Source of the DNA: a virus
Length of the DNA: 64,000 bases
IMG/VR virus record: IMGVR_UViG_3300016665_000824
Coordinates: 64,001 to 128,000 of that record
Strand: one strand, 5' to 3'
Below, piece after piece: positions 4,954-36,117 of the stretch (the stretch's first letter is position 1; each line of letters starts with the position of its first letter). The position numbers were made by a program, and so were the translations under genes. The notes under the pieces are model-generated. The model was not told the DNA's origin and did not search any database. It worked only from the letters and a program-made list of their open reading frames with translations.

Positions 4954-5039
4954 GATTTAGATCTGAATACGTTGTCCGATAATAAGCGATCGCCAATTCA
5001 GCTTCATTTAAAATCTCCGAAGGCGCGATCGCTAAGATT

Positions 5040-6593
5040 TTGGCATTTAGTTGTGCGATCGCTATGGCAAAATTTACAACAGGAGATCAGGCTTCAACTG
5101 CTGCTCTGTCGCGAGTTGACACTCTTCTCCAAACTATAAATACCGACGCAGACTATGCGCTTTGGCGGGAATGGATTTATGACAGGGCGATCGCCAAACT
5201 AGCACTAGGCTTAACTGGCGGAGGTGGAAGCTCCACTTCAATTCTTGCGGGTTTCAAGGCGATCGCTAATGGCACTGGCTACAGTATTGGCGATTTGATA
5301 TTTTTGCGGCAAACAGGAACTAACCAAACCGAATATTACAACGGTACTACAGGTTTAGTTATTACACCTGCCCCACCTAGCAGCGATCTTGGCTCTATTA
5401 TCTCTTCTAGTAATGTTGCTGTTACATCACTTCCTCCATTGCCGTCTGGCGCAAATACCATTGGCGCTATATCAAATGCTAGTTTTGGTATTAGTGGTAG
5501 CTTGCCAGCATTTGCTAGCACACCCACAGTAAATATTGGTACTACTGGCGCGATCGCCACTGATAGCACCTTACAGCAAGTAAGGGACGCGATCAAAGCA
5601 CAGATCGATATCGCCTCAACAATTTGGACAGATAACACAGATACTTTTTATGTACGACGAGATCTGGTAAACGAAGGAACGGGAGTAATCACTGTATCTT
5701 TTACTTTGCCAGACGGTACGGCGGCTACACCTAGCGCTGGACTTAGACCTCTAGCAACCGTAGATAAAGATGTTCTTAGTGATTATTACGATGTATTGAT
5801 TGCGGGTACTGGCTATGCGATCGGGGATTTATTAGCAAGGGTTGCGATCATTGATGCAAACGGTGCTTCTCCAACATCAACATTTATCTGGCTGAATTTG
5901 ACGGCAGGGACAATCCTCGGAACAGCACCTAGTTCTGCAAATATTGAAAGAGCGAACGAAACTATCGGTGCTAGGCAAAGCGGTACATGGAATATCACCA
6001 ATATTAGTGGTACGGTATCACTACCTACGGGAGCCAGTACATCGGCTAATCAGGCTACAGCGATCTCAAGCCTTGGCAGCATTGACGGAAAACTCCCTGC
6101 GAGTTTAGGGGTAAAAACTGCTGCTAATTCACTTGCTGTAACGCTTTCAACGGATGGAATCGCGAGTGGAATTGACACAAAAATTGGCGAAGTCCAAACA
6201 ACTCCAACTGCTAATACTGTTTTGGCGAGATTAAAAAATATTGCTGATGCGTTGGTGTTTGGGGCAAAATCACCAGCTAATAGTATTTCAGTTACCCAAG
6301 CTTTCGCCGCAACATCTACCCTAGCGAATGTGGCTAGTAGTGCGACATCAGTTAGCTTGTTAGCTGCCAACAATAACCGCAAAACAGCAATCATTCTAAA
6401 TGATTCGACTTCAGATTTATACGTTACTCTCAACGCAAGCGCCGCCAGTACGACGAATTATTCATTATTTTTAGCCGCTAAAGTTGGTAACACGCCATCA
6501 TTTTTAGCTATAAATGGTGATGATTATTCGGGCGAAATTCGTGGAATTTGGAGTAGTGCTAATGGTTTCGCAAGAATTACGGAGGTCGTGTAA
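5040..6593 (+). CDS. tail fibre-like protein (Ser/Thr/Ala/Gly-rich); ATG at 5064 is an alternative start
   Basis: 517 aa low-complexity S/T/A/G/N-rich composition typical of fibre/receptor-binding proteins; stop overlaps next start (TAATG). Confidence 0.5.
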   Translation: MAFSCAIAMAKFTTGDQASTAALSRVDTLLQTINTDADYALWREWIYDRAIAKLALGLTGGGGSSTSILAGFKAIANGTGYSIGDLIFLRQTGTNQTEYYNGTTGLVITPAPPSSDLGSIISSSNVAVTSLPPLPSGANTIGAISNASFGISGSLPAFASTPTVNIGTTGAIATDSTLQQVRDAIKAQIDIASTIWTDNTDTFYVRRDLVNEGTGVITVSFTLPDGTAATPSAGLRPLATVDKDVLSDYYDVLIAGTGYAIGDLLARVAIIDANGASPTSTFIWLNLTAGTILGTAPSSANIERANETIGARQSGTWNITNISGTVSLPTGASTSANQATAISSLGSIDGKLPASLGVKTAANSLAVTLSTDGIASGIDTKIGEVQTTPTANTVLARLKNIADALVFGAKSPANSISVTQAFAATSTLANVASSATSVSLLAANNNRKTAIILNDSTSDLYVTLNASAASTTNYSLFLAAKVGNTPSFLAINGDDYSGEIRGIWSSANGFARITEVV

Positions 6594-9552: not shown

Positions 9553-11208
9553 TTATTTGAGTCGTCCCTCAACCCACATCTTAGCAAAGGGAGAGTCCAA
9601 ATCCTTAAACAACCGAGAAGCAATTTCTACAGCCGAAACGGAATCCTGTTTAACACCTTCTTCGGGAGGTGTATCTGCTTGACCCTGATCTGCACCTTGA
9701 TCGCCAAAGTAGTCGCCACCTTGATCGCCGCCATATCCCTGTAGAGCTGCAAGCTCTTGTTGCTGCTTGGCTAATTCTTCATCCTGCTTCAGTTTTTCCC
9801 ACGCTTCCTTATCGAGAGAGACCTCATAGGAGTACTCTGTTCCACCGTAGAGGCTAGCGCGAACTTCATCCTTAGTAATTGCTCCCGACTGGGTTTGCAG
9901 AGCGATAAGCATATTAGTGTGAGCAGTTTGGTTGGCTACTTCATCTTTGCGACTCTCTACATAGAGGGGTTTAAACTTATAAGACCATCCTTCAGGGATC
10001 TTACCCTTCGTAGGGCCATCTTGAGCGAGCCAAATATACTTGTAAAGCATATCCAACTTGCGGTGGCGATAATTCTGCTCTTGATAGGCAGCAACGGTCT
10101 TTGACCAAACCTGATCTTCGGTTTCTCCAGTACCACCTGCCGCTAACCCTTTTGGTCCACGCCCAAAGATCATTGTGTAAGGAATCCCCACCGCAGCAAC
10201 CAAATCTTCTTGAAAGCTCGCTTTCATGTCGGACAAGCCTTGGTAGTTCCGCACTAGATAAGTAAGGTCATCTTCCGAGTCTACCGACACCGCCCCCAGC
10301 TTCCGCATCTGCATCTTCATGGCGCGAAACTGTTCTGAAAGAATGGTTAAAGCTTTTGGCACTCCATTGGTAGTGGCAGCTCCACCAGCAGCTTTTTCTT
10401 GGGCAAGATTTTGTTTGATCAGGTTTTGCAGGTTCTTCATCTTGTGGAGAAGAATCGTGTGATCTTGAATCATCTCCGCCATTGCGTCGGAGACTTTTGT
10501 GTAGCGAGCAATTTCTTTGAGTGCTGAGACGATTAGCGGATCGCCCCATCCACCCGTCGATCGCAACAATCTTGGAGGTAATCGAGAACCATCAAATCGA
10601 ATAATCCGCGATTTGTGAATTAAGTTGAACGAGGTGTAGTTTGAGCCTAACTTATCTATCTTGGATTTCGATTCTTGGGAGTAAAAGACCTGATAAAAGT
10701 CGGGGTCATCAGAGGGTGCATCAAGGTTTGGGAAATACGGGCGGATATCCTGCGGGTCAAGCTCGTAGATACCCTTGATGGTTTTAATTTTTGCCGTGTT
10801 AACTGGCTCGTTTGGGGGTAGCCCATCATCGATATTGACGAGAATAGCTGCGCCGCCATAAATATTCGCTAGCCAGTCAGCCTTATTAAATTTGTATTTC
10901 GCTTCTATCCTTTCTTCGTACTGTTCAAAGGCTGTGGCAATCTTGCGATCAGTGTCCTTAACTAAGCTAATCTCAGTCCATTTTCTTGTTGCCTCGTCAG
11001 GAAACACCGAGACAATTTTCTTTCCTAGCCAGTCCCTAGATAGTTCTTCGAGGGCTTTGTAGCTTAGTCTGCGCCGATCGCCTGTGCTATTCATCCCCAG
11101 ATCATTCTGAGCGAGCAGGTTGTTGTTGTACTCAGCCTCATAGAGCGCATCGATAATGGCTCCGTCTTGTCTCACATAGACTTCGGGATAATCTGTTTCT
11201 TTGGACAT
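9553..11208 (-). CDS. major virion structural protein (portal or major capsid candidate; not resolvable by eye)
   Basis: 551 aa ORF with Gly/Asp/Gln-rich C-terminal tail; preceded by intrinsic terminator and leader inverted repeat; downstream of a coiled-coil scaffold-like gene. Confidence 0.6.
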   Translation of the reverse strand: MSKETDYPEVYVRQDGAIIDALYEAEYNNNLLAQNDLGMNSTGDRRRLSYKALEELSRDWLGKKIVSVFPDEATRKWTEISLVKDTDRKIATAFEQYEERIEAKYKFNKADWLANIYGGAAILVNIDDGLPPNEPVNTAKIKTIKGIYELDPQDIRPYFPNLDAPSDDPDFYQVFYSQESKSKIDKLGSNYTSFNLIHKSRIIRFDGSRLPPRLLRSTGGWGDPLIVSALKEIARYTKVSDAMAEMIQDHTILLHKMKNLQNLIKQNLAQEKAAGGAATTNGVPKALTILSEQFRAMKMQMRKLGAVSVDSEDDLTYLVRNYQGLSDMKASFQEDLVAAVGIPYTMIFGRGPKGLAAGGTGETEDQVWSKTVAAYQEQNYRHRKLDMLYKYIWLAQDGPTKGKIPEGWSYKFKPLYVESRKDEVANQTAHTNMLIALQTQSGAITKDEVRASLYGGTEYSYEVSLDKEAWEKLKQDEELAKQQQELAALQGYGGDQGGDYFGDQGADQGQADTPPEEGVKQDSVSAVEIASRLFKDLDSPFAKMWVEGRLK

Positions 11209-17595: not shown

Positions 17596-18051
17596 ATGTC
17601 TAACTCTAGTTCTGCCACAAAATTGGCGATCGCAAGATTAAAAGGATCTGACCTGCCTATTTTTGTTCCAGTTTCAGTCTCTGAGAAAGTCGCAACCCTA
17701 GTCAGGGAGTGTATTTTACAGTCCGACAGTTTAAAGATATTAAAAGTTACTACTACAGTTTACAACGAGCTTACTAAGCATTTAAAGCAGTACGAAAAGC
17801 CAAAATATACCATTCCTCAGTATCTTTTGATGCTCCTATATACGGTTTCTACTACTTCAGAATTGATCGAAAAACACAACAAGGGTTTAATTTCAGATGA
17901 CGAGTTTATTAACTGTATCAAAAACAACAAAAACGCAAACGGGACTAAAACCTCCCGCAAAATGGGTCGGAAGAAAGCAAGCGTTGATGCCAGCGATCGC
18001 GCAGTACTTCCCCGCGAGGTTCACAAAAGAACCAGTTCCAAGGTTTCTTGA
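17596..18051 (+). CDS. hypothetical protein (3-prime end overlaps methyltransferase start; true end uncertain)
   Basis: 151 aa ORF. Confidence 0.35.
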   Translation: MSNSSSATKLAIARLKGSDLPIFVPVSVSEKVATLVRECILQSDSLKILKVTTTVYNELTKHLKQYEKPKYTIPQYLLMLLYTVSTTSELIEKHNKGLISDDEFINCIKNNKNANGTKTSRKMGRKKASVDASDRAVLPREVHKRTSSKVS

Positions 18052-18814
18052 TTTCAAAAAGGGTGTCGGCAATTTCCACGACCCTTTCGTTGGTACTGGT
18101 AGTGCATTTTTGTATTTTGCGGATGGATTTCGAGGCGATCGCAAGATTTTTATTAGTGACAGTAATCCTGAACTCATTAATATTTGGCTGTGCATTCAAG
18201 CCGATCCTCTAAGGCTTTTAAGATCCTTGCTTGAATACAAGCGCCCTGTATTTAACAGCGCCGAATCGTACTATCACGAAAGGCAGATCTTCAATCAGCA
18301 GTTTAAAGGTTCTTACGACTACGAGCTAGCAGCAAGAATGATCTACTTAATTCAGGCTGGTTTCAATAGCCTATGGAGGGTTAACAGCGACGGTGAAATG
18401 AACACGCCTTTTGGCTCTCAGAAGCAAATTGCCCTTCTTACCGAGAATGATTTGACCGCGCTTTCGGTTCTCCTTCAAAAAGCGACAATCAAACATCAGC
18501 CTTTTGAAGAGTCGCTAAAAGATGTACAACCCAATGATGTCGTCTATCTCGACCCGCCATACATTGAAGTCAAAAAGAATTCCTTCAATAAATACACCAC
18601 AAAAGGTTTTAGCAGAGAGCAGCAGATACTCCTCCGCCAAGAAGCCGATCGCCTGCACGATCTAGGCGCTTATGTATACGCCAGTAATAGCGATACCCCC
18701 TTGAGTCGCGAAATTTGGTCGGGCTGGAAAATCGCAGAACTGACGAGATCGGGCTGCATGAACTCAGATGCAACCAAGCGTCAACGGGTTGGAGAGTTGT
18801 TATTTTATAAATAA
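17897..18814 (+). CDS. dam: DNA N6-adenine methyltransferase, Dam/D12 class
   Basis: KWVGRK near N-terminus, FVGTGS AdoMet-binding-like motif, DPPY catalytic motif. Confidence 0.7.
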   Translation: MTSLLTVSKTTKTQTGLKPPAKWVGRKQALMPAIAQYFPARFTKEPVPRFLDFKKGVGNFHDPFVGTGSAFLYFADGFRGDRKIFISDSNPELINIWLCIQADPLRLLRSLLEYKRPVFNSAESYYHERQIFNQQFKGSYDYELAARMIYLIQAGFNSLWRVNSDGEMNTPFGSQKQIALLTENDLTALSVLLQKATIKHQPFEESLKDVQPNDVVYLDPPYIEVKKNSFNKYTTKGFSREQQILLRQEADRLHDLGAYVYASNSDTPLSREIWSGWKIAELTRSGCMNSDATKRQRVGELLFYK

Positions 18815-25102: not shown

Positions 25103-25466
25103 TTTTTAATCCGCAACGTAATTTTGTTGTGCTATTGTTGTAATCACCAAAGAAGCAAATGAGAGACCCACCTGCTAAAAATAAGCAAAAAATAAAAGAG
25201 CCAACCGCCAAGTCGCTCTTTCATTCTTTGAAAATGATTGTTTGTTTCACTTCAGTTTCGGTTGTTCCTTCCACCTCGTCGTTTACACGCCTTGGCTGTT
25301 TGTGTTCAACACGACACTAATTTCCTGAATACTCTAACACATGGCGATCGCTTTGTGAAGGGGAATTTACGGAATTGGTGAAAAAACTGGAAGACAAGTG
25401 GTTTCTTGGGAATCTCAAGAACGCTTTGGTTGTTTTTTACACTTTAGTTTCGTAGGAAATTTAGTT

Positions 25467-25997
25467 ATGCTCTCAAGCGAAGAATACATACGCGACAGAC
25501 AAGACTTCGGTTGCTGGGAAGCCCGTATATTTTACTCCCCAGAATTAGATGCCGTTGTTGCGGCAGGTTTTATGGATGGGTTGATCTTCAACAAGGAAGA
25601 ACTCTTCCAGCTAGGCTCATTACTCCTTGATGCCTCAATTAACGTTTCGGGTAAAGACATCTGCCACCTCAATAATCGGACATCGGCGAGAGGTCGTTCT
25701 GACAAGGATTTTTGGCTACAGCGCAAGAATAGATCTGGACTCGTGTATCTAATCAAGGCGATCGGGACTAACTACTACAAAATTGGTAGAACAAAAGATA
25801 TTGAGACTAGATTAGAGACCCTGCAAAAGTCATCTCCATTCGACCTCTCGCTGATTCTTGCCATAGAAACATCAGACTCTTTGGCTCTAGAGAGGTACTT
25901 CCACGATAAGTACAATGATTGTCGAGTTAGGGGTGAGTGGTTTGAGCTAGATGAGTATGCGATCGCTGAATTTATGAGCTACGAGGAGGTCGCGTGA
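25467..25997 (+). CDS. GIY-YIG / T5orf172-like nuclease domain protein
   Basis: GLVYLI...YYKIGRTKDIETRLETL pattern; start placed at internal ATG 25467. Confidence 0.45.
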   Translation: MLSSEEYIRDRQDFGCWEARIFYSPELDAVVAAGFMDGLIFNKEELFQLGSLLLDASINVSGKDICHLNNRTSARGRSDKDFWLQRKNRSGLVYLIKAIGTNYYKIGRTKDIETRLETLQKSSPFDLSLILAIETSDSLALERYFHDKYNDCRVRGEWFELDEYAIAEFMSYEEVA

Positions 25998-28977: not shown

Positions 28978-29559
28978 GTGGGCAAAAACACACAAAATTA
29001 CAACAAAACTATGCAAGAAGAAATCTCACAACAGGAAATCGCTGCGATCGCAGCCGCAAAACTGAAAAGAATGCAGCGATCGCAACAACAAGAGCCGATA
29101 ACGAAGGTCGAGCCAAAAACTCCAAGTCCCGCACCAGCAAAACAGTCAAAATCAGCAACAAACAGCTACTGGAACAAACCTCAAAGCAGCATCGACATCG
29201 TGAAAAACCCCAAGCACGTTGCCGATATTTACACCATGACCCCGTGGATACCCCAGCCACAGGTAGATGATATCTGCGCGATCGCCGAAAGACCCTACGG
29301 CGACTGGATAGACCTCGAAGCGCAGCATATCGAAGGCAAGTGGGATAGGCAAAGATTCATTGAGTCAGCCTATAACTGGCCTTTCCGCGCCAAGATGCGA
29401 TGTGTTGAAATTTCTGAGGACGGACTGATGGCAACAGTATCCGTCTCAGGAGTCCGCAAACGATTACCACTAGTGTGTTTATGGGAGATGAATGAAATAG
29501 TTGACACTATGACTAATAGTGAGTATGATGAATCTTGGTTTCAGGTAAGACAATTATGA
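28978..29559 (+). CDS. hypothetical protein
   Basis: 193 aa ORF; 3-prime end lies in a duplicated junction segment. Confidence 0.4.
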   Translation: MGKNTQNYNKTMQEEISQQEIAAIAAAKLKRMQRSQQQEPITKVEPKTPSPAPAKQSKSATNSYWNKPQSSIDIVKNPKHVADIYTMTPWIPQPQVDDICAIAERPYGDWIDLEAQHIEGKWDRQRFIESAYNWPFRAKMRCVEISEDGLMATVSVSGVRKRLPLVCLWEMNEIVDTMTNSEYDESWFQVRQL

Positions 29560-29560
29560 C
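29501..29560 (+). repeat. ~60-bp junction segment, copy A
   Basis: About 80 percent identical to 29958-30016 by eye; both end in ...TTTCAGGTAA(G/A)ACAAT(T)ATGAC. Confidence 0.6.
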
Positions 29561-29870
29561 AAAGACTTTAATCTGTAGAGAGATTAAGTGCCTGTATTTC
29601 GACGTTTCAGACCCAATGAGTTCTGGTTGTAAATTCTACGAAAGCGCTCGTCAATGTCACCTACTGTCTGGGATGCTTTCTACTGAAAAGACAGCACTGG
29701 CGACTGACTACGAAATAATTGCTGAAGATTTGTATACGGCTGAAGACCTGATCAGGGTTGAAAACGATTTTTACATTAAATGTTCTGAAAAGTATTTACG
29801 CGATTGTGAGCTTCAGGGGCTTACACCTGAACCCGTAAGAGAAAATGTTCGAGCATGGTTTCGTAGATGA
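29556..29870 (+). CDS. Cys-containing hypothetical protein (ATG at 29556; track start 29535 is TTG)
   Basis: ATG overlaps upstream stop; flanked by two copies of a ~60-bp junction segment. Confidence 0.4.
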   Translation: MTKTLICREIKCLYFDVSDPMSSGCKFYESARQCHLLSGMLSTEKTALATDYEIIAEDLYTAEDLIRVENDFYIKCSEKYLRDCELQGLTPEPVRENVRAWFRR

Positions 29871-29957
29871 CTCCAGCAACTAAAGCAAGATTCACAAATA
29901 GGCGATCGCCTTCTCTGCCTCGTTTTTTAACATTTTGTGGCAGTTAAAAGAAAATGT

Positions 29958-30016
29958 TTGACAGTATGCCTAGTAGTGTGTATGATGGTATTTAGTTTCA
30001 GGTAAAACAATATGAC
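29958..30016 (+). repeat. ~60-bp junction segment, copy B (upstream region of gene 30012)
   Basis: See copy A. Confidence 0.6.
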
Positions 30017-30530
30017 GAATAGCTTGGCTGTGACCTACCAATCGCTCCCACAGAAAGAACAGCTTGAGATACTAGCAGGAGTATCACACCTTATGATAAA
30101 GGTAATGGCAGGTAAAATCCCAACAACAGAAGAGATGGACTTGGCTTCAAAAGCCCAGACCCATCCAAGCCTATTTTTAAAATGCTTCTCTGCCGAACTT
30201 ATGGGAGAGGAGTGGAGACCAAAGCTATTGCCTCAAGGCGGAGAAGGGTATATTATTCGCTGGAAATCCGATGAATACGAAGAGGTAGAGACCGACTCCT
30301 ATCCCTTTAAAAAGAGGGTTTACAAAGAAGAGGGCAATGGACTTGAAATCCAAAGCTACGAGCAGGCGATCGCCAATTGTGAATTTCTAAATAAGCAATA
30401 CCCAGAGAGGACTTACTGGCACTTCTGGGTAAACCAAGACATCCTCAACAACGCAGAAAGCGAGGGTCTTCAACTCATAGACACTGTTGCTCAGCATCTC
30501 TTTGAGGCTCTATCACAGGCTCATGGTTAG
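30012..30530 (+). CDS. hypothetical protein
   Basis: 172 aa ORF. Confidence 0.45.
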   Translation: MTNSLAVTYQSLPQKEQLEILAGVSHLMIKVMAGKIPTTEEMDLASKAQTHPSLFLKCFSAELMGEEWRPKLLPQGGEGYIIRWKSDEYEEVETDSYPFKKRVYKEEGNGLEIQSYEQAIANCEFLNKQYPERTYWHFWVNQDILNNAESEGLQLIDTVAQHLFEALSQAHG

Positions 30531-30533
30531 TTT

Positions 30534-30824
30534 ATGACCCCAGAAACTAGAGCGCGATTCAAAGAATGGGCGATCGCCTACTGGAAGAAAAATCCAAAGT
30601 TACTGAAGCCACCCGATGACTTTCTCACGCAAGGACAGCAGTTGGCGATCGCTATCTACCATGCCATTCCCGCCGATGGGAAGTTTATTAAAGCTGATGC
30701 GATCGCTACTAAGCTCAAACGCAAAACCAGACAAATAGAAGAGATTCTGGGGCTAATCAAAGAGCCGTGGCATCTCAAGTCAAGTAAAAACAACAAGGAA
30801 GGAGGATATACGAGAAATGAGTGA
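30534..30824 (+). CDS. hypothetical protein
   Basis: 96 aa ORF. Confidence 0.4.
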   Translation: MTPETRARFKEWAIAYWKKNPKLLKPPDDFLTQGQQLAIAIYHAIPADGKFIKADAIATKLKRKTRQIEEILGLIKEPWHLKSSKNNKEGGYTRNE

Positions 30825-31089
30825 CACAGTTGGTTTGATTTTTGGTAAGGAAGATAGCAGGACAGAGCAGGAAATCTCTGAGCTTGCGGAGGTCGTAAAA
30901 GCGGCTGGAATTAAGAGAAACCCTGCCATGTTTGCAAGATTTATTTACACACTCGACAAGACAAAAACCTGTCACCCGTCGATTGACCGTGAAGCCTTTC
31001 TGCTAACACTTCAAGAAGTATGGGAAGAGAAGGGACTCCAAGGACTTTCTCTCGCTGAAGAAATATATCAAAGAGGTTTTACAAGATGA
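30817..31089 (+). CDS. hypothetical protein
   Basis: 90 aa ORF, overlapping starts/stops. Confidence 0.4.
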   Translation: MSDTVGLIFGKEDSRTEQEISELAEVVKAAGIKRNPAMFARFIYTLDKTKTCHPSIDREAFLLTLQEVWEEKGLQGLSLAEEIYQRGFTR

Positions 31090-31823
31090 TTGAAAGGCAA
31101 GTTAAACTGCTGGTTCTAGACAAAGACGGTACACTCGTTCGCCCCAAATCTGGCAATACCTTCGTCCAGCACCCCGAAGATCAGGAGCTAATCGAAGGAG
31201 TGGCTGAAGCTATTCAGAGGTATGTTGCTGATGGATGGCAGTTGGCGATCGCGTCAAATCAGGGTGGATGCGAAGTGCGATGGTGTCACCCCGCCGAATT
31301 ACCTGTAGGTAGTTACTGCAATGTAGATAACATTGCCATCAAGGTTGAATACCTTCAAGACACTGGTGAGTTTATACTCGTAAATGGGCATCACCCACTA
31401 CCAAAAACTAGGTTTGCGAAGTTCCAATACAAGACTCTCGGCATAGCGATCGCAGAGATGCAGTATGCGATGAAGCTGATCGGCATTCAGTATCATGGTC
31501 TATTCTGTCCAGACATGCAAGGGAATGAATGCTACATGACTTCGGACTTTGCTGCTCCGCCATTACACAAGGTTGATAGATACAAACACTTAATAGGCTC
31601 GTTCCGTAAGCCCAGTGGTGGAATGTTGCTAGCATTAAAGCAGCACTTTGAAACACATCTTGATGATGTTGATCGGCTGCTCATGATCGGCGATCGTCCC
31701 GAAGATTTGGGATCGGCTCAAGCCGCAGGATTCGATTTTGTGTGGGCAGAAGACTGGCGAAATAACGAACTAGACAAAGTTCTGCCCTACAGGAGCGAAG
31801 AATGGATCGCTCTGAACTCCTAA
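31086..31823 (+). CDS. HAD-superfamily phosphatase
   Basis: N-terminal VLDKDGTL (DxDGT motif I) and C-terminal MIGDRPEDLGSAQAAG (motif IV-like). Confidence 0.5.
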   Translation: MIERQVKLLVLDKDGTLVRPKSGNTFVQHPEDQELIEGVAEAIQRYVADGWQLAIASNQGGCEVRWCHPAELPVGSYCNVDNIAIKVEYLQDTGEFILVNGHHPLPKTRFAKFQYKTLGIAIAEMQYAMKLIGIQYHGLFCPDMQGNECYMTSDFAAPPLHKVDRYKHLIGSFRKPSGGMLLALKQHFETHLDDVDRLLMIGDRPEDLGSAQAAGFDFVWAEDWRNNELDKVLPYRSEEWIALNS

Positions 31824-32101
31824 CTCGCATCCAAGTCCAGCGAATGTGGCTAGAGGACATCCGTGGCAAGTCTCTAGCTCCTCAGTTGGAGATTTGGAAG
31901 AACAAATACCTTGCCGCAAATAATCTCACGCATCTGGATGCTCAGGGGCTGGAGCAACTGCTTAAGGCTCTTGAGTCTATGACTAAGGCTACGGTGAGTA
32001 ACGCCGAGGAATTGGATAGTCAGATGCGCGAGAGGATTAAGAGTGGCGACTACTCGATTCGATTTGTTGAAAAGATTGTTGAAGATGATGAATATTTTTA
32101 G
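31802..32101 (+). CDS. hypothetical protein
   Basis: 99 aa; 3-prime end encoded by junction repeat R1. Confidence 0.4.
   Translation: MDRSELLTRIQVQRMWLEDIRGKSLAPQLEIWKNKYLAANNLTHLDAQGLEQLLKALESMTKATVSNAEELDSQMRERIKSGDYSIRFVEKIVEDDEYF
32074..32100 (+). repeat. junction repeat R1 (GATTGTTGAAGATGATGAATATTTTTA), copy a
   Basis: Identical 27-mer at 32619-32645; both followed by a purine-rich RBS-like GGAGG/AGAGG. Confidence 0.75.
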
Positions 32102-32120
32102 GAGGAGGTAAACCCCAACC

Positions 32121-32336
32121 ATGCGAAACGCCTACTTAACACTTTTTGTGATCAACACCCGTTCAGGACTCGCAGTTAATTATTCAATCAATACCGCAGC
32201 CGACCAGAAGGAGGCTAGAGCCGATGCTCTACTACTCATCGATGAGAGATATCGAGGTCAAAATATTCAGGTTCTAGAAACATCTATTATTCCAAACGAA
32301 GTTATCGATCAGGTTTATGAGTCTCGACACGAGTAA
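32121..32336 (+). CDS. hypothetical small protein
   Basis: 71 aa; GGAGGAGG RBS upstream. Confidence 0.4.
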   Translation: MRNAYLTLFVINTRSGLAVNYSINTAADQKEARADALLLIDERYRGQNIQVLETSIIPNEVIDQVYESRHE

Positions 32337-32340
32337 ACTC

Positions 32341-32384
32341 GATCGCCACTTTTTCAGATCTGAATTACCACAAAAGCACAATGA
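32341..32384 (+). repeat. junction repeat R2 (...AGATCTGAATTACCACAAAAGCACAATGA), copy a
   Basis: 29-bp identical core at 32356-32384 and 33097-33125, flanked by near-identical GATCGNCNCTTTTT. Confidence 0.75.
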
Positions 32385-32614
32385 TTTTAGAGGCCTATTA
32401 TGAAACGTGGGTATCTCGCCCCATTCAAAAGAGAGCTAAAGGTCGAGCCACCTATAGTAAGCCGCAGTGGGAGCATACCTCAGACACAGAAGAAGAGGCG
32501 ATCGCTCACAACAAGATGCTTTCGGCTTACTACCCCGACTGGAAGATTGAAATCAGGGCTGTCGAACAAAAACGAGAATACTGGGATGTCAAGACTGCGG
32601 CAGTTCGAGATTAA
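32381..32614 (+). CDS. hypothetical small protein
   Basis: 77 aa; ATG supplied by junction repeat R2; alternative frame 32400..32627 also open. Confidence 0.35.
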   Translation: MILEAYYETWVSRPIQKRAKGRATYSKPQWEHTSDTEEEAIAHNKMLSAYYPDWKIEIRAVEQKREYWDVKTAAVRD

Positions 32615-32618
32615 AGAA

Positions 32619-32645
32619 GATTGTTGAAGATGATGAATATTTTTA
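32619..32645 (+). repeat. junction repeat R1, copy b
   Basis: See copy a. Confidence 0.75.
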
Positions 32646-32655
32646 AGAGGTTAAT

Positions 32656-33147
32656 ATGGCAAGTGTCAAGCATTATTTAAGTTGCCCAGCTAAGCCCTAC
32701 GAAGAAGGGATACCCTTATACTCCGATCGCCTGAGAGAATGGTTTCACGATATCGGTGATGTCTGGGAATACTACGAAGATCAGATCGGAGAAGATGAGG
32801 ATATTGATCTTGAATGGGCGGAAGCCAAGCAATCGCCTCAAGGTATTTGTGAAATGGCTCGTCTTTTCTTAGGTAGACCAGTTTATTTGCCGTGGGCTGA
32901 GATTCCTGAATTTGATCTACCTGATGGTGTTGACGATATCTCGGAAATACTGCCGCCAAGCCACGAGATCAACATAAAACTTGCCGAGTTAAACAAGCTT
33001 ATCGAAGAAACAAAGCTGGTTGTTTGCTACGAGGAGTCTAGCTACCGCCCAGATCCAGAAACCTTGGACTTTAAGTGCGCGATCGTCGCTTTTTTTAGAT
33101 CTGAATTACCACAAAAGCACAATGAAAGCTCGACAGTTCGAGATTAA
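32656..33147 (+). CDS. hypothetical acidic protein
   Basis: 163 aa; C-terminal codons lie in second copy of repeat R2. Confidence 0.4.
   Translation: MASVKHYLSCPAKPYEEGIPLYSDRLREWFHDIGDVWEYYEDQIGEDEDIDLEWAEAKQSPQGICEMARLFLGRPVYLPWAEIPEFDLPDGVDDISEILPPSHEINIKLAELNKLIEETKLVVCYEESSYRPDPETLDFKCAIVAFFRSELPQKHNESSTVRD
33081..33125 (+). repeat. junction repeat R2, copy b
   Basis: See copy a; supplies C-terminal codons of gene 32656..33147 and the ATG of gene 33122..33376. Confidence 0.75.
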
Positions 33148-33376
33148 ATTTAGAAACCATCCAGAGTGCGATCGCCTAGTCGAAGCCACCAGTCATGCCA
33201 AAGCCAAGATGAAGCTCGCCTACGAGTTGGTTGAGGCGGGAGTATTTAATACTTTTGGAGAGGCTTTACTGGCGATCGCCACCTGCCGAGTCTTACAGCC
33301 AATGAAGCGAGGGAAACCCGAAGGGTGGTATCGGGTGAACCCTAAACGAAAAACAACAAGGAACAAAAAGCAGTGA
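33122..33376 (+). CDS. hypothetical small basic protein
   Basis: Internal ATG at 33122 (supplied by R2 copy) inside track ORF 33020..33376. Confidence 0.35.
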   Translation: MKARQFEIKFRNHPECDRLVEATSHAKAKMKLAYELVEAGVFNTFGEALLAIATCRVLQPMKRGKPEGWYRVNPKRKTTRNKKQ

Positions 33377-33939
33377 TTGACAAAACAAGATTAGAAATAG
33401 CGAACAAGGTCTTAGCAGTACTCAGTGAGTCTTATCGTAAGACTGAGTTTGTAGTTAGCGATCGCAACCGACTTTACCTGAACTGGTTCGATTATTACGG
33501 CAAGGCATATAGTCGTCCTTGGGCAACAAGATGTGGCTCGGCGTATCCAAGCTGGAGCGACAAACTGTCTTGCGGCGGCACGATGATGACGGCGATCGCG
33601 CAGTTGGCTTTATGGGTTCGCGGATTGCCTTGCTACCCCATTCAGACTTGGGAGTATTGGTGCGGAGAGACGGTTGGAATGAGAGGTGGGGAGAAAATTC
33701 TTCCACTCTTAAGGGACAGTGGCTGTTATCCCGATGGACTTAGTTGTGCTTTTTGTGGGGCTAGGGATGTCGAGAGGGATTGGTATTGGTTCTCGCCTCA
33801 CCCTAAGCACTCTGGGTTTGGATGCCAGCGCCCAGAATGCCAGCCAATTATAGATCTTAGGAATAGTTTGGACGTAAAACAACAAAATCGCGTCAAAAGA
33901 ATTTTATCCTCGCAACGTATCCCTGCTTCCGTAAAATAG
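33373..33939 (+). CDS. Cys/Trp-rich hypothetical protein (possible metal-binding)
   Basis: 188 aa with 12 Cys and many Trp/Tyr. Confidence 0.4.
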   Translation: MIDKTRLEIANKVLAVLSESYRKTEFVVSDRNRLYLNWFDYYGKAYSRPWATRCGSAYPSWSDKLSCGGTMMTAIAQLALWVRGLPCYPIQTWEYWCGETVGMRGGEKILPLLRDSGCYPDGLSCAFCGARDVERDWYWFSPHPKHSGFGCQRPECQPIIDLRNSLDVKQQNRVKRILSSQRIPASVK

Positions 33940-34086
33940 TTTGATCGGTAACGTAAATTTGTGGCAATATTAACAGAAGCGTTTCAAGAACAATGAACAA
34001 ACTAATTGCCTATCTGGTAAACAAAATCGAATCTGCTTACCACACTGCAAGATTCCTGCTATCTATACTTAAATTGGAGTTTCCCC

Positions 34087-34401
34087 ATGCTAGACCCCAT
34101 AGAGCTACAGGTCAGTATTTTCGAGATGGAGTTCACGCAGGCGATCGCGCACCAATCCCTCCCAGAAGCAAGAAAGGCAGTAGCCGATTATTTGCAGCTA
34201 CTGGAGCACAAGAAGGACTCGACAATCAGGCTGAGACCCCAAGTGACATCCTTGGTTTCTGGGCTGGAGACCCTCTCGATAGATTTACTAATTCAATCAA
34301 CCGAAAGTCGGGAGGAACTCAAGGCGATCGCGGTAAGGATTTGCAGGATGTTGCTGAAACTAAACACGCTGCTCAAGGAAGCGGTGAGCGGGATCTGCTA
34401 A
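34087..34401 (+). CDS. hypothetical protein
   Basis: 104 aa ORF with protein-like composition; overlapping track ORF 33993..34631 looks out-of-frame in its middle. Confidence 0.3.
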   Translation: MLDPIELQVSIFEMEFTQAIAHQSLPEARKAVADYLQLLEHKKDSTIRLRPQVTSLVSGLETLSIDLLIQSTESREELKAIAVRICRMLLKLNTLLKEAVSGIC

Positions 34402-34627
34402 CCCAGCAGGACATTATCCTAGACAAGATGCGTCGGAAGCAATCGGAATTTGAAGACTACTACGTTTTTAGCACTCACGACATAGTGACCCTATGTGAGG
34501 ACAGTCATCTGGACTGGGACTTGGCTTTTGACCAGCTAATAGCTTTAAACAAGAGGAATCTAGTTGCTATAAATCCGACATATTGCGATCGCACAGGCAA
34601 ATTTATCGGATTGTTGTGGGGTTTAAA

Positions 34628-35572
34628 ATGAGTAAAACCGTAGCCACGATGTATTCTGGCTTTGGCGGAGTTGATCAGGGTTTCGTTTTGGCAGGGTATA
34701 CGCCAGTCTTTGCGATCGATAACAATCCTGATGCAGTAGCGGTTTATATCGAGAATTTTGGCAACCACTGTCTAGAGAAGGACGTTTGTGAGTTTGATTA
34801 TTCAAGAGTTAAAGCAGATCACCTCCATGCTTCTCCAAGCTGCAAAGAGTTTAGTAGCGCCAATCACCGTAGTAGCGAAACCGATCTCGATATTCGATGC
34901 GCCCAAGCTACGGTTAAGGCGATCGCACAGATAAACCCTCAAACATTTTCCCTCGAAAATGTAAAGCAGTACGCTAAGTCTAAGTCTTTTGATTTGATTA
35001 GGCGATCGCTACGAGAAATGGGCTACGCCTGCAACGTAACCGTAGTCAACGCGAAGGATTTCGGTGTATCCCAATCACGAGAAAGGCTAATTCTTCGAGC
35101 ATGGGTTAAATCCCGCAAACGCCCTAGACCTTTGGCGTTGTACAAACAGTGTTTAACAATGGGGTGGCATGACGCGATCGCCGATTTAATCCCCACTCTC
35201 AAACCACAACCATTGAATAATTGGCAGCTAGCCTCTCTTGAGGAGCAGGGTATAGACCCCACCAACCTAACTGCACTGGTTAGCAAAGATGGGTCTCGCA
35301 AGAAAAAAGGCTTTAAAAATACTTTTGCCTTGGTAATCCCCTCGTCCAAGCCTTGCCCAACCCTCAAGGCAATGGGGCATAATCAGCACTGTCAGCAGTA
35401 TTCGATTGTGGTTAACGGTGTTGGTTATCGGATTTCTACCGAGGCGATCGCGAGACTAATGAGCTTTCCCGACTCATTCAAATTCTCAGGAGTGAATTAT
35501 AAAGACTGTATGGGTTTAGGTAATGCAGTACCGCCATTATTGGTAAGAGCGATCGCGGAAAGTTTTGCTTAA
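34628..35572 (+). CDS. DNA (cytosine-5)-methyltransferase
   Basis: Motif I-like MYSGFGG, catalytic PSCKEFSSAN (Pro-Cys), ENV motif; start at internal ATG 34628. Confidence 0.65.
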   Translation: MSKTVATMYSGFGGVDQGFVLAGYTPVFAIDNNPDAVAVYIENFGNHCLEKDVCEFDYSRVKADHLHASPSCKEFSSANHRSSETDLDIRCAQATVKAIAQINPQTFSLENVKQYAKSKSFDLIRRSLREMGYACNVTVVNAKDFGVSQSRERLILRAWVKSRKRPRPLALYKQCLTMGWHDAIADLIPTLKPQPLNNWQLASLEEQGIDPTNLTALVSKDGSRKKKGFKNTFALVIPSSKPCPTLKAMGHNQHCQQYSIVVNGVGYRISTEAIARLMSFPDSFKFSGVNYKDCMGLGNAVPPLLVRAIAESFA

Positions 35573-35605
35573 AAATCCATAAAACTACCACAAAATCGAG
35601 TTATC

Positions 35606-35875
35606 ATGAAGGAATCTGATTTAGACAATGCGATCACGCAGGCAGAACAGTTTTTAATTCTCGCAAAAGAGCTAAAAGCTGGCTTTCAAGCTCAGAAGAA
35701 GGTGATCGCCGAGGCAGAAGCCGAGGTGATTCGCGAAAATCTATCTGAGACATACGCGGAAAATAAAATCTTTTTCGCCCGTTACAACAACAAGATGGAG
35801 GGAACGAGACTAATGGGTGCAGTAAAGCATTCCTGTGTTACCCTCTCCCTCTTTTTAGCAAAGCTGAGGAAATAA
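35606..35875 (+). CDS. hypothetical protein
   Basis: 89 aa ORF. Confidence 0.4.
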   Translation: MKESDLDNAITQAEQFLILAKELKAGFQAQKKVIAEAEAEVIRENLSETYAENKIFFARYNNKMEGTRLMGAVKHSCVTLSLFLAKLRK

Positions 35876-36117
35876 TGACCCAGTATATACAGACCGAATT
35901 CTGCCTTGATTTAAGGCAAGGTGATACCGAATCACTGCCTACATGGATGAAAAGCGTAGGCGATCGCCCACCGATTCTCCCTTTAAAACCACTCTCAATT
36001 CAATTGCCACTATTCGATACAACACCCTATGCCTCAACCCAAGCTCCTGCTAAAACCAAAACCGCCAGAGGCGATCGCTATAAGCAAGTTGCTATTTCGA
36101 CCCCGCAACACCTCTAG
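35875..36117 (+). CDS. hypothetical protein
   Basis: 80 aa ORF. Confidence 0.3.
   Translation: MTQYIQTEFCLDLRQGDTESLPTWMKSVGDRPPILPLKPLSIQLPLFDTTPYASTQAPAKTKTARGDRYKQVAISTPQHL

Follow-up and report, generated by a model that had tools for sequence, protein, structure and literature searches.

The hyperplastic regions of T4-type phages contain promoter-early stem-loop (PeSL) cassettes (Arbiol et al. 2010, PMC2839356; Comeau et al. 2014, PMC4122927), whose defining features are a sigma-70 promoter and a stem-loop terminator, with about 50 copies scattered over each genome (PMC2839356). Here, we analyzed a comparable array of small genes in a 64,000-nucleotide stretch of viral DNA (IMG/VR record IMGVR_UViG_3300016665_000824, positions 64,001 to 128,000; hereafter, the window), in which three short sequences, R1, R2, and R3, each occur twice within 1.1 kb at gene boundaries. 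The array is PeSL-like in that its short repeats run from an upstream stop to a downstream Shine-Dalgarno sequence and start codon, flanking ORFans in a hyperplastic region, in that close relatives vary by insertion, deletion, and replacement of the flanked genes, and in that the direct repeats could excise gene circles. It differs from PeSLs in the number of copies, two for each repeat, in having no promoter-like site in R2, no terminator at R1 or R2, and no stable fold, and in that two of the three repeats are fragments of the flanking genes made by rearrangement.

Mosaic joints made by illegitimate recombination have reportedly been described in lambdoid phages and mycobacteriophages by Hendrix, Juhala, Pedulla, and colleagues. 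The window shares with them a non-homologous join between related genomes at or near gene boundaries, an abrupt change in similarity, the survival of intact genes, and the accumulation of small genes of little-known function in early or DNA-metabolism regions. Unlike those joints, the one in the window lies inside two genes, and both fragments, the head of gene E and the tail of gene A, are still recognizable; as relatives show one parental arrangement whole and the other in pieces, a base-by-base reconstruction of the event is possible. Morons are extra genes inserted between two conserved phage genes, and classic ones carry their own promoter and terminator. The accessory genes of the array and of its relatives (B, C, D, F, and the X genes) are likewise small additions between conserved neighbors, each with its own leader, but no promoter or terminator was detected for the window cassettes. 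Integron cassettes are a further parallel, being tandem promoterless small open reading frames (ORFs) separated by short recombination-prone sites; they differ in that the window repeats are direct copies of gene ends. An inverted-repeat search gave only matches based on the HIP1 octamer (GCGATCGC) and no attC-like imperfect inverted repeats, and no integrase domain was found among the 30 window proteins scanned, a subset of the window ORFs.

Our comparison of the array with related loci makes it likely that a single unequal crossover between two related cyanophage variants explains all three repeat pairs. The repeats would then be a consequence of the crossover and not demonstrably its cause, a view that we take because of their interleaved order and the fusion of an E head to an A tail.

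Organization of the repeat array

The preliminary description of this DNA had named three repeat pairs, and all three exist where it placed them. R1 is an exact 29-mer (32072-32100 and 32617-32645) that extends to 34 nt with one mismatch (32072-32105 and 32617-32650). R2 is also an exact 29-mer (32356-32384 and 33097-33125), reaching 35 nt at 97% identity, with an additional HIP1-like flank from about 32340 and about 33080. The shortest, R3, is an exact 15-mer (32601-32615 and 33134-33148), or 18 nt with one mismatch (32598-32615 and 33131-33148). When up to three mismatches were allowed, R1 and R2 had exactly two copies each in the 64 kb and none in 100 shuffles. R3 alone is marginal against chance (0.23 expected with up to two mismatches, and at least two copies in 2 of 100 shuffles); the R3 pair is nevertheless truly homologous, each copy being the start of the E coding sequence. 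The repeats start in a collinear, interleaved order at 32072 (R1), 32350 (R2), 32598 (R3), 32617 (R1), 33091 (R2), and 33131 (R3), so that the array reads R1-B-R2-C-R3 followed by R1-D-R2-R3-E, with the joint between R3 and the second R1. This 1-2-3-1-2-3 order is the prediction of a tandem join. The features of the array are as follows.

Gene A: 31802..32101, plus strand; 99 aa; the conserved left anchor of the variable interval
R1 copy 1: 32072..32105, plus strand; the A tail (..KIVEDDEYF and stop) with an AGGAGG Shine-Dalgarno sequence serving B
Gene B: 32121..32336, plus strand; 71 aa; accessory cassette
R2 copy 1: 32340..32384, plus strand; HIP1-like CGATCGCC, conserved leader, and ATG, serving C
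Gene C: 32381..32614, plus strand; 77 aa; accessory cassette between the R2 leader and E
E', the truncated E head: 32586..32615, plus strand; ATG and 9 codons (MSRLRQFEIK), holding R3 copy 1 (32598-32615)
Novel recombination joint: 32615..32616; joins codon 10 of E to the A tail; microhomology of 1 nt at most
R1 copy 2: 32616..32650, plus strand; non-coding A-tail remnant, its stop now TAA (nhmmer E=5.5e-6)
Gene D: 32656..33147, plus strand; 163 aa; accessory cassette, here with a 19-aa extension through R2 and R3
R2 copy 2: 33080..33125, plus strand; degenerate HIP1 (GCGATCGT), conserved leader, and ATG of E
Gene E: 33122..33376, plus strand; 84 aa; conserved, at the right side of the array, holding R3 copy 2 (33131-33148)

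For comparison, we found 29 homologues of gene A (70-100% amino acid identity) and retrieved about 15 distinct contexts, referred to here by L numbers; A is present in every related locus. R1 consists of the last ~10 codons of A, its stop codon, and a Shine-Dalgarno sequence. It is the A tail in all 29 homologues and in the related loci, and the bases of copy 1 are identical in L001, L023, and L025. In the second R1 copy, the Shine-Dalgarno sequence is AAGAGG and serves D, 7 nt before its ATG. R3 is the 5' coding end of E (M-K-x-R-x-F-E-I-K-F). R1 and R3 are thus gene fragments, and the proposal that the repeats are dedicated, conserved junction elements does not agree with gene ends that occur twice each in 64 kb.

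R2 is the leader of E, a block of the form GCGATCGCC-CTTTT(T)CAGATCYGAAWTAMCACAAAA-N4-6-ATG that precedes E, C, or, where E is absent, the downstream G212 ORF in every related locus (it also stands before C in L013 and L025). The block is conserved among genomes that are ~70% identical. Gene conversion need not be invoked for the close match between the two copies of R1 or of R2, since both segments are conserved clade-wide and are identical or nearly so in L001, L023, and L025. In a profile and fuzzy search of the window and the related loci, copies were confined to the interval from A to G212.

A translation-initiation or regulatory element had also been considered for the repeats. The translational part of this idea holds, as R2 is a conserved leader with a start codon and R1 supplies a Shine-Dalgarno sequence; the regulatory part found no counterpart in our scans. 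A sigma-70 consensus scan of 31000-34500, covering sigma-70-type sites only, gave no site in R2. Its single promoter-like match (9 of 12 positions, 32067-32096) has a -35 element partly outside R1, and shuffles averaged 4.3 matches. No terminator-like site overlapped R1 or R2, the four R1 and R2 copies showed no stable RNA fold (z = 0.10, 0.19, -0.36, and +1.44), the R2 copies being unstructured (z = -0.4 and +1.4), and no Rfam family matched R1 or R2. A promoter, terminator, RNA-structure, or Rfam role for R1 and R2 was dropped after these scans, folds, and the Rfam search.

The small genes B, C, D, and E, proposed previously at 32121..32336, 32381..32614, 32656..33147, and 33122..33376, are real coding genes: they have homologues in related contigs and their substitutions are biased to the third codon position (positions 1/2/3: B, 21/13/41; C, 17/11/35; D, 10/8/38; E, 27/20/44). 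Homologues of B lie directly 3' of A in L009 (53% amino acid identity) and L025 (96%), with a distant version in L027, and C is 68% identical at the amino acid level to L013 5380-5607. D homologues of 137-144 aa stop before R2 in all six other arrangements that carry D, namely L001 (and its L014-16 copies), L010, L011, L013, L017, and L023. E homologues of 71-78 aa are found in L009, L010, L011, L013, L017, L021, and L027, always with R2 upstream. An alternative frame for gene C (32400-32627) was rejected, as substitutions fall on its second codon position and L013 interrupts it with a stop; the final 10 codons of this frame correspond to the E' remnant. No informative family emerged when A, B, C, D, and E were scanned against Pfam and PHROGs.

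In the window lineage, D has lost its stop codon (GCGATCGCCTAAGCCGC to GCGATCGTCGC, window 33076-33147), and only because of this loss is R2 coding within D. The suggestion that the same DNA is C-terminal coding sequence in one copy and leader in the other stands for R1, which is the C terminus of A and the leader of D; for R2, it applies only since D lost its stop here. A small deletion beside a HIP1 site removed the D stop, and D and E now overlap by 26 nt.

A non-homologous joint between genes E and A

E' reads ATG TCA AGA CTG CGG CAG TTC GAG ATT AAA and is followed by the A tail from 32616, the breakpoint on the A side lying ~10 codons before the A stop. An intact counterpart of the left side is present in L013. 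In this locus, C lies between R2 and a complete E whose start (MTKPRKFEVKF...) is inside the 3' end of C (..GMTKPRKFEVKFKRY..), and E' is collinear with this overlapping start.

The nearest relative changes across the joint. The body of A is closest to L025 (93%), with L001 and L023 at 83-85%, whereas for D the identity to these last two loci is 95-97%. At the start of R1 copy 2, G32616 agrees with the A tail of L023 (GAGAAGATTG) and differs from that of gene A in the window itself (GAAAAGATTG). The first codons also differ between E' (MSRLRQ) and E (MKARQ), which fits two parental alleles and not an intragenomic copy. Finally, B and C share no homology with D, excluding a duplication followed by divergence.

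Arrangement of the array in related loci

To the right of E, the window continues with two genes, one inside the variable interval and one at its right end.

Cysteine-rich gene: 33373..33939, plus strand; 188 aa; only in the clade of the window and L001, within the variable interval
G212 ORF: 33993..34631, plus strand; conserved right anchor, upstream of a C5 methyltransferase gene (tblastn)

G212 was matched by tblastn in every locus long enough to reach it. The loci between the two anchors are arranged as follows.

L001 and L014-16: A-R1-D-stop-HIP1-R2-E(mini)-188-aa gene
L023: A-R1-D-stop-HIP1-R2-E head fused to the 3' end of the 188-aa gene
L010: A-R1-D-HIP1-R2-E-TnpB
L025: A-R1-B-HIP1-R2-C... 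(contig end)
L027-30: A-R1-B'-HIP1-R2-E
L009: A-R1-B-HIP1-R1-F-HIP1-R2-E
L011/12: A-R1-X1-HIP1-D-HIP1-R1-X2-HIP1-R2-E
L013: A-R1-X3-HIP1-X4-(degenerate R1)-D-HIP1-R2-C-E
L017: A-R1-X4-HIP1-D-X5-HIP1-R2-E
L020: A-R1-X6-R2-G212
L021: A-R1-X7-HIP1-X4-HIP1-R2-E

Among the relatives, A and G212 are 276 to 2040 nt apart, and between them we counted at least 12 families of small genes unrelated to one another, along with several deletion joints at the E head. The interval appears to be a hyperplastic accessory-gene region in which small genes are gained, lost, and swapped. Compared with the window, L001 is without exactly one R1-to-R1 unit of 545 nt (32106-32616; B-R2-C-R3-R1) and has, in addition, a 183-nt in-frame deletion in E. 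Other genes lie between the R1 and R2 copies of L009, L011, and L013, and other cassettes of the array use unrelated leaders. The swapping and absence of cassettes at these junctions, anticipated in the preliminary description, are evident from L001, from the A-B-R1-F-R2-E order of L009, and from the D-R2-C-E order of L013. That description is thus partly supported: the data agree with cassette shuffling and give no support to recombination driven by dedicated junction sequences.

The E head is a recurrent breakpoint, with examples of its shortening in the lists above. In L001 and L014-16, the mini-E has 23 aa (L001 5938-6009; window 33166-33351), and the left end of the 183-nt deletion is 2 nt from the HIP1 at window 33168. 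In L023 (1492-1575), codon 5 of E is joined to the 3' end of the 188-aa gene, which is deleted there, leaving only five E codons. Genes of mobile-element type also occur in or beside the interval. In L010, E and G212 are separated by a TnpB (IS605 OrfB) gene (5036-6217), and an HNH endonuclease gene is immediately 5' of A in L013 (3122-3916).

Both halves of the window array have counterparts in these loci. The arrangement A-D-R2-E is complete in L001, L014-16, and L010, and L023 has A-D-R2 without an intact E. The other arrangement is found in pieces, as A-B-R2-C in L025, R2-C-E in L013, and A-B'-R2-E in L027.

On this basis, we propose that two variants coexisted, parent 1 with the order A-B-[HIP1-R2]-C-E and parent 2 with the order A-D-[HIP1-R2]-E. 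A non-homologous join would have connected codon 10 of E in parent 1 to A of parent 2, ~10 codons before its stop, and the product would be A-B-R2-C-E' joined to A'-D-R2-E, with both gene sets in tandem. R1 would then be the duplicated A tail with its Shine-Dalgarno sequence, R2 the E leader contributed by each parent, and R3 the duplicated E head. We infer that the event took place in a single step, in this direction, and during co-infection. At present, the A' remnant would serve only as the ribosome-binding leader of D, and R2 copy 1 would supply C with its leader and ATG. Homologous deletion could act on the direct repeats: recombination between the R1 copies would give the L001-type array, and recombination between the R3 copies would give an A-B-R2-C-E array.

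Several observations weigh against this reconstruction. Parent 1 is never seen whole, as L025 ends inside C and L013 has C-E without B. Protein searches with B and C in a set of 5.8 billion proteins returned only the window's own protein and one 96% variant of B, so that a complete parent 1 genome was not retrieved. Extra copies of the A tail stand before F in L009 and before a 63-aa gene in L011, with a degenerate copy before D in L013; they arose independently in L009 and L011, and probably in L013 too. Their left ends cluster within ~12 nt, and two of them start exactly at a HIP1 octamer. That A-tail copies recur points to a favored site or process and not to a single accident. The sequences all come from metagenomic contigs, and the joint is known at the contig level. 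The direction comes from parsimony only: an L001-like array could have given rise to the window, or the window to an L001-like array by deletion between its R1 copies.

Alternative explanations

In a rather improbable alternative, the repeats are dedicated mobile junction or regulatory cassettes of the PeSL kind, whose homology causes the excision, insertion, and exchange of cassettes. Such a role would be in keeping with R2, which together with its HIP1 shows higher conservation than the genes on either side and is found at a cassette boundary in every relative, and with A-tail copies that precede four different genes in four lineages. L001 is, moreover, the exact product expected from deletion between the two R1 copies of the window, and the relatives differ in cassette content at the junctions. 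R1 and R3, however, are fragments of A and E and not intergenic elements, the two copies of each repeat in 64 kb lie together within 1.1 kb, with none outside the A-to-G212 interval in relatives, R2 has no sigma-70 promoter, R1 and R2 have no terminator, fold, or Rfam match, and the joint between E' and A' is non-homologous. Of four testable PeSL features, the window repeats lack three (promoter, stem-loop, and dispersed multiple copies) and show only the bounding of insertions, deletions, and replacements between relatives. Three features of a tandem-join scar, namely the interleaved order, the fusion of an E head to an A tail, and the change of nearest relative across the joint, are present. 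Convergence or selection could instead have kept the copies similar, each being the best leader or ribosome-binding region for the gene that follows. The B and D starts lie 7-15 nt after the AGGAGG or AAGAGG that ends R1, and R2 carries the ATG of C and E, is unstructured, and is conserved in ~70%-identical genomes. We consider this explanation very unlikely, as it leaves unexplained R3, the interleaved order, and the 25 nt of copied A coding sequence 5' of the Shine-Dalgarno sequence; R1 copy 2 retains the A frame and stop as a relic, and other cassettes of the array have unrelated leaders.

An interleaved order and a joint between an E head and an A tail would also be produced by an intragenomic tandem duplication of the segment from the A tail to the E head, with the cargo of one copy replaced later. 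This would require two additional replacement events; B and C are unrelated to D, and the duplication also conflicts with the switch of similarity across the joint, the different first codons of E' and E, and the L023-type base at G32616, which together make it very unlikely indeed. We attach the least credence to an assembly artifact, in which a metagenome assembler concatenated two strain variants at short shared sequences. The material consists only of metagenomic contigs, and one of the two supporting contigs ends shortly past the second copies of R2 and R3. An ENA metagenome contig of 134 kb (ERZ27292652:k141_20893) matches the window, and the Logan contig SRR27476765, from another sample and another assembler, is 98.7% identical over 29166-33175, where it ends, with an identical A-B-C-D order. 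Because this order recurs in an independent sample and assembler, the array is unlikely to be a chimera; in addition, repeats of 29-35 nt are far below the k=141 suggested by the contig name, and concatenation would not yield the unique joint between E codon 10 and the A tail.

HIP1 sites at cassette boundaries

HIP1 occurs 185 times in the 64 kb (1 per 346 bp), compared with 0.66 expected from base composition. Because of this huge over-representation, we assign the window to an uncultured cyanophage. In Synechocystis, the density of HIP1 is 1 per 1131 bp (PMC6604393), making the window ~3 times denser. The HIP1 core is known to be modified by two activities, C5 and Dam-like methylation, and the phage has a methyltransferase gene for each (the Dam-like one of D12 type). 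A link of HIP1 to recombination or repair has been suggested (PMC6604393; PMC9239245), and our literature search found no description of a role for HIP1 in phage cassette exchange.

In the array and its relatives, cassette leaders have HIP1 at their 5' edge, immediately following the stop codon of the preceding gene. A HIP1-like site within -9 to +25 nt of the stop was found for 17 of 32 variable-region genes and 14 of 104 other window genes (odds ratio 7.3, P = 1e-5), counts that are less independent than they look because the HIP1s belong to no more than about four families of homologous leaders (R2, the A tail, the X4 leader, and a second D leader). B, D, and X4 are each found joined to more than one downstream leader, and their homology stops at the HIP1 edge. 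The extra A-tail copies of L009 and L011 start exactly at an octamer that is at once the HIP1 after the upstream stop and the HIP1 inside the A tail of several relatives (TATGCGATCGCATTTGTTG).

These observations raise the possibility, which we regard as doubtful, that the array is built of units of HIP1 octamer, leader, small ORF, and stop, with HIP1 as the preferred crossover point. HIP1 is very dense genome-wide, and the window's own joint is not at a HIP1, both of which speak against such a role. A HIP1-mediated origin of the window's own joint was ruled out, as there is no HIP1 between 32615 and 32616. If HIP1 did act as a crossover point, recombination on 8-11 nt of microhomology would be one possible mechanism, and breakage at unmethylated CGATCG by host PvuI-like enzymes would be another.

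Genomic context and neighboring genes

By gene content, the window is a 64-kb segment of a tailed-phage genome. It encodes DnaG primase, DnaB helicase, dCTP deaminase, ThyX, and the pol III beta clamp as well as the following proteins.

Portal protein: 9553-11208, minus strand
Dam-like D12 methyltransferase: 17897-18814, plus strand
HAD/PNK-type phosphatase: 31086-31823
C5 DNA methyltransferase: 34628-35572, plus strand (Pfam)

None of 50,697 phage records had a DNA match to window 30000-36000, and the portal protein shares only ~30% identity with its counterparts in Synechococcus phage S-CBS4, Aphanizomenon phage CL131, and Planktothrix phage PaV-LD; the comparison therefore had no annotated relative to draw on. 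Relatives of gene A and the R2 pattern had no match in the genome_contigs set, which gave no host or prophage lead. In viral_contigs, the C-start pattern had no match and the R2 pattern gave nothing new, and the sole return of a metagenome_contigs scan was a contig already known from IMG/VR.

Mosaicism extends upstream of A, with 720 nt in L001 (4420-5140) compared with 2274 nt in the window (29507-31780), and L001 is without the HAD phosphatase. In the Logan contig (L004 1523-2904), a gene for a CoiA-nuclease-like protein of 324 aa and a 136-aa gene replace the window's 193-aa gene (28978-29559). A T5orf172/MUG113-domain protein is encoded at 25398-25997 on the plus strand, just 5' of the replication genes. 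This family is often tied to homing-type endonucleases.

On the other side of the array, G212 contains an internal ORF in the +1 frame (34087-34401, 104 aa), and both frames are open across diverged relatives (G212 and internal ORF, respectively: L001 6621-7271 and 6715-7029; L009 6040-6693 and 6143-6454; also L029 2300-2635). Between the window and L001, the overlapped middle is third-position biased in the internal frame (6, 4, and 14 substitutions at positions 1 to 3) and not in the G212 frame (14, 6, and 4). Toward its C terminus, G212 does show third-position bias in its own frame (34, 25, and 52). The pattern could reflect one gene nested in another or separate genes wrongly called as a single fused one. 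A second conserved leader precedes G212 (window 33940-33992; TTTGATC..AACG..ATTTTGTGGCA..ATTAAC...). In L011 (5520-5563) and L027 (4200-4239), the G212 leader holds an R2-like core, GAATTAACACAAACTTACAA, and it may be a related regulatory or leader motif.

Implications

If the association of HIP1 with cassette boundaries proved to be mechanistic, this long-enigmatic cyanobacterial palindrome would gain a testable role in recombination. HIP1 would then be a cyanophage counterpart of PeSLs or attC sites, and accessory genes would be recut and rejoined between co-infecting phages.

Together, our data are best described as a well-resolved recombination scar in what appears to be a hyperplastic accessory-gene region of a novel cyanophage lineage. 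They define a hypervariable locus between A and the G212 and methyltransferase genes, with the R2 leader marking its right edge, and the lineage that hosts this locus would be a previously undescribed group of HIP1-rich freshwater cyanophages. The array offers a base-resolved case of how the accessory repertoire of a phage may grow, in which one unequal crossover would stack the gene sets of both variants and the truncated gene ends left as direct repeats can later drive deletion. This is an ordinary route to phage mosaicism that is unusually clear here.

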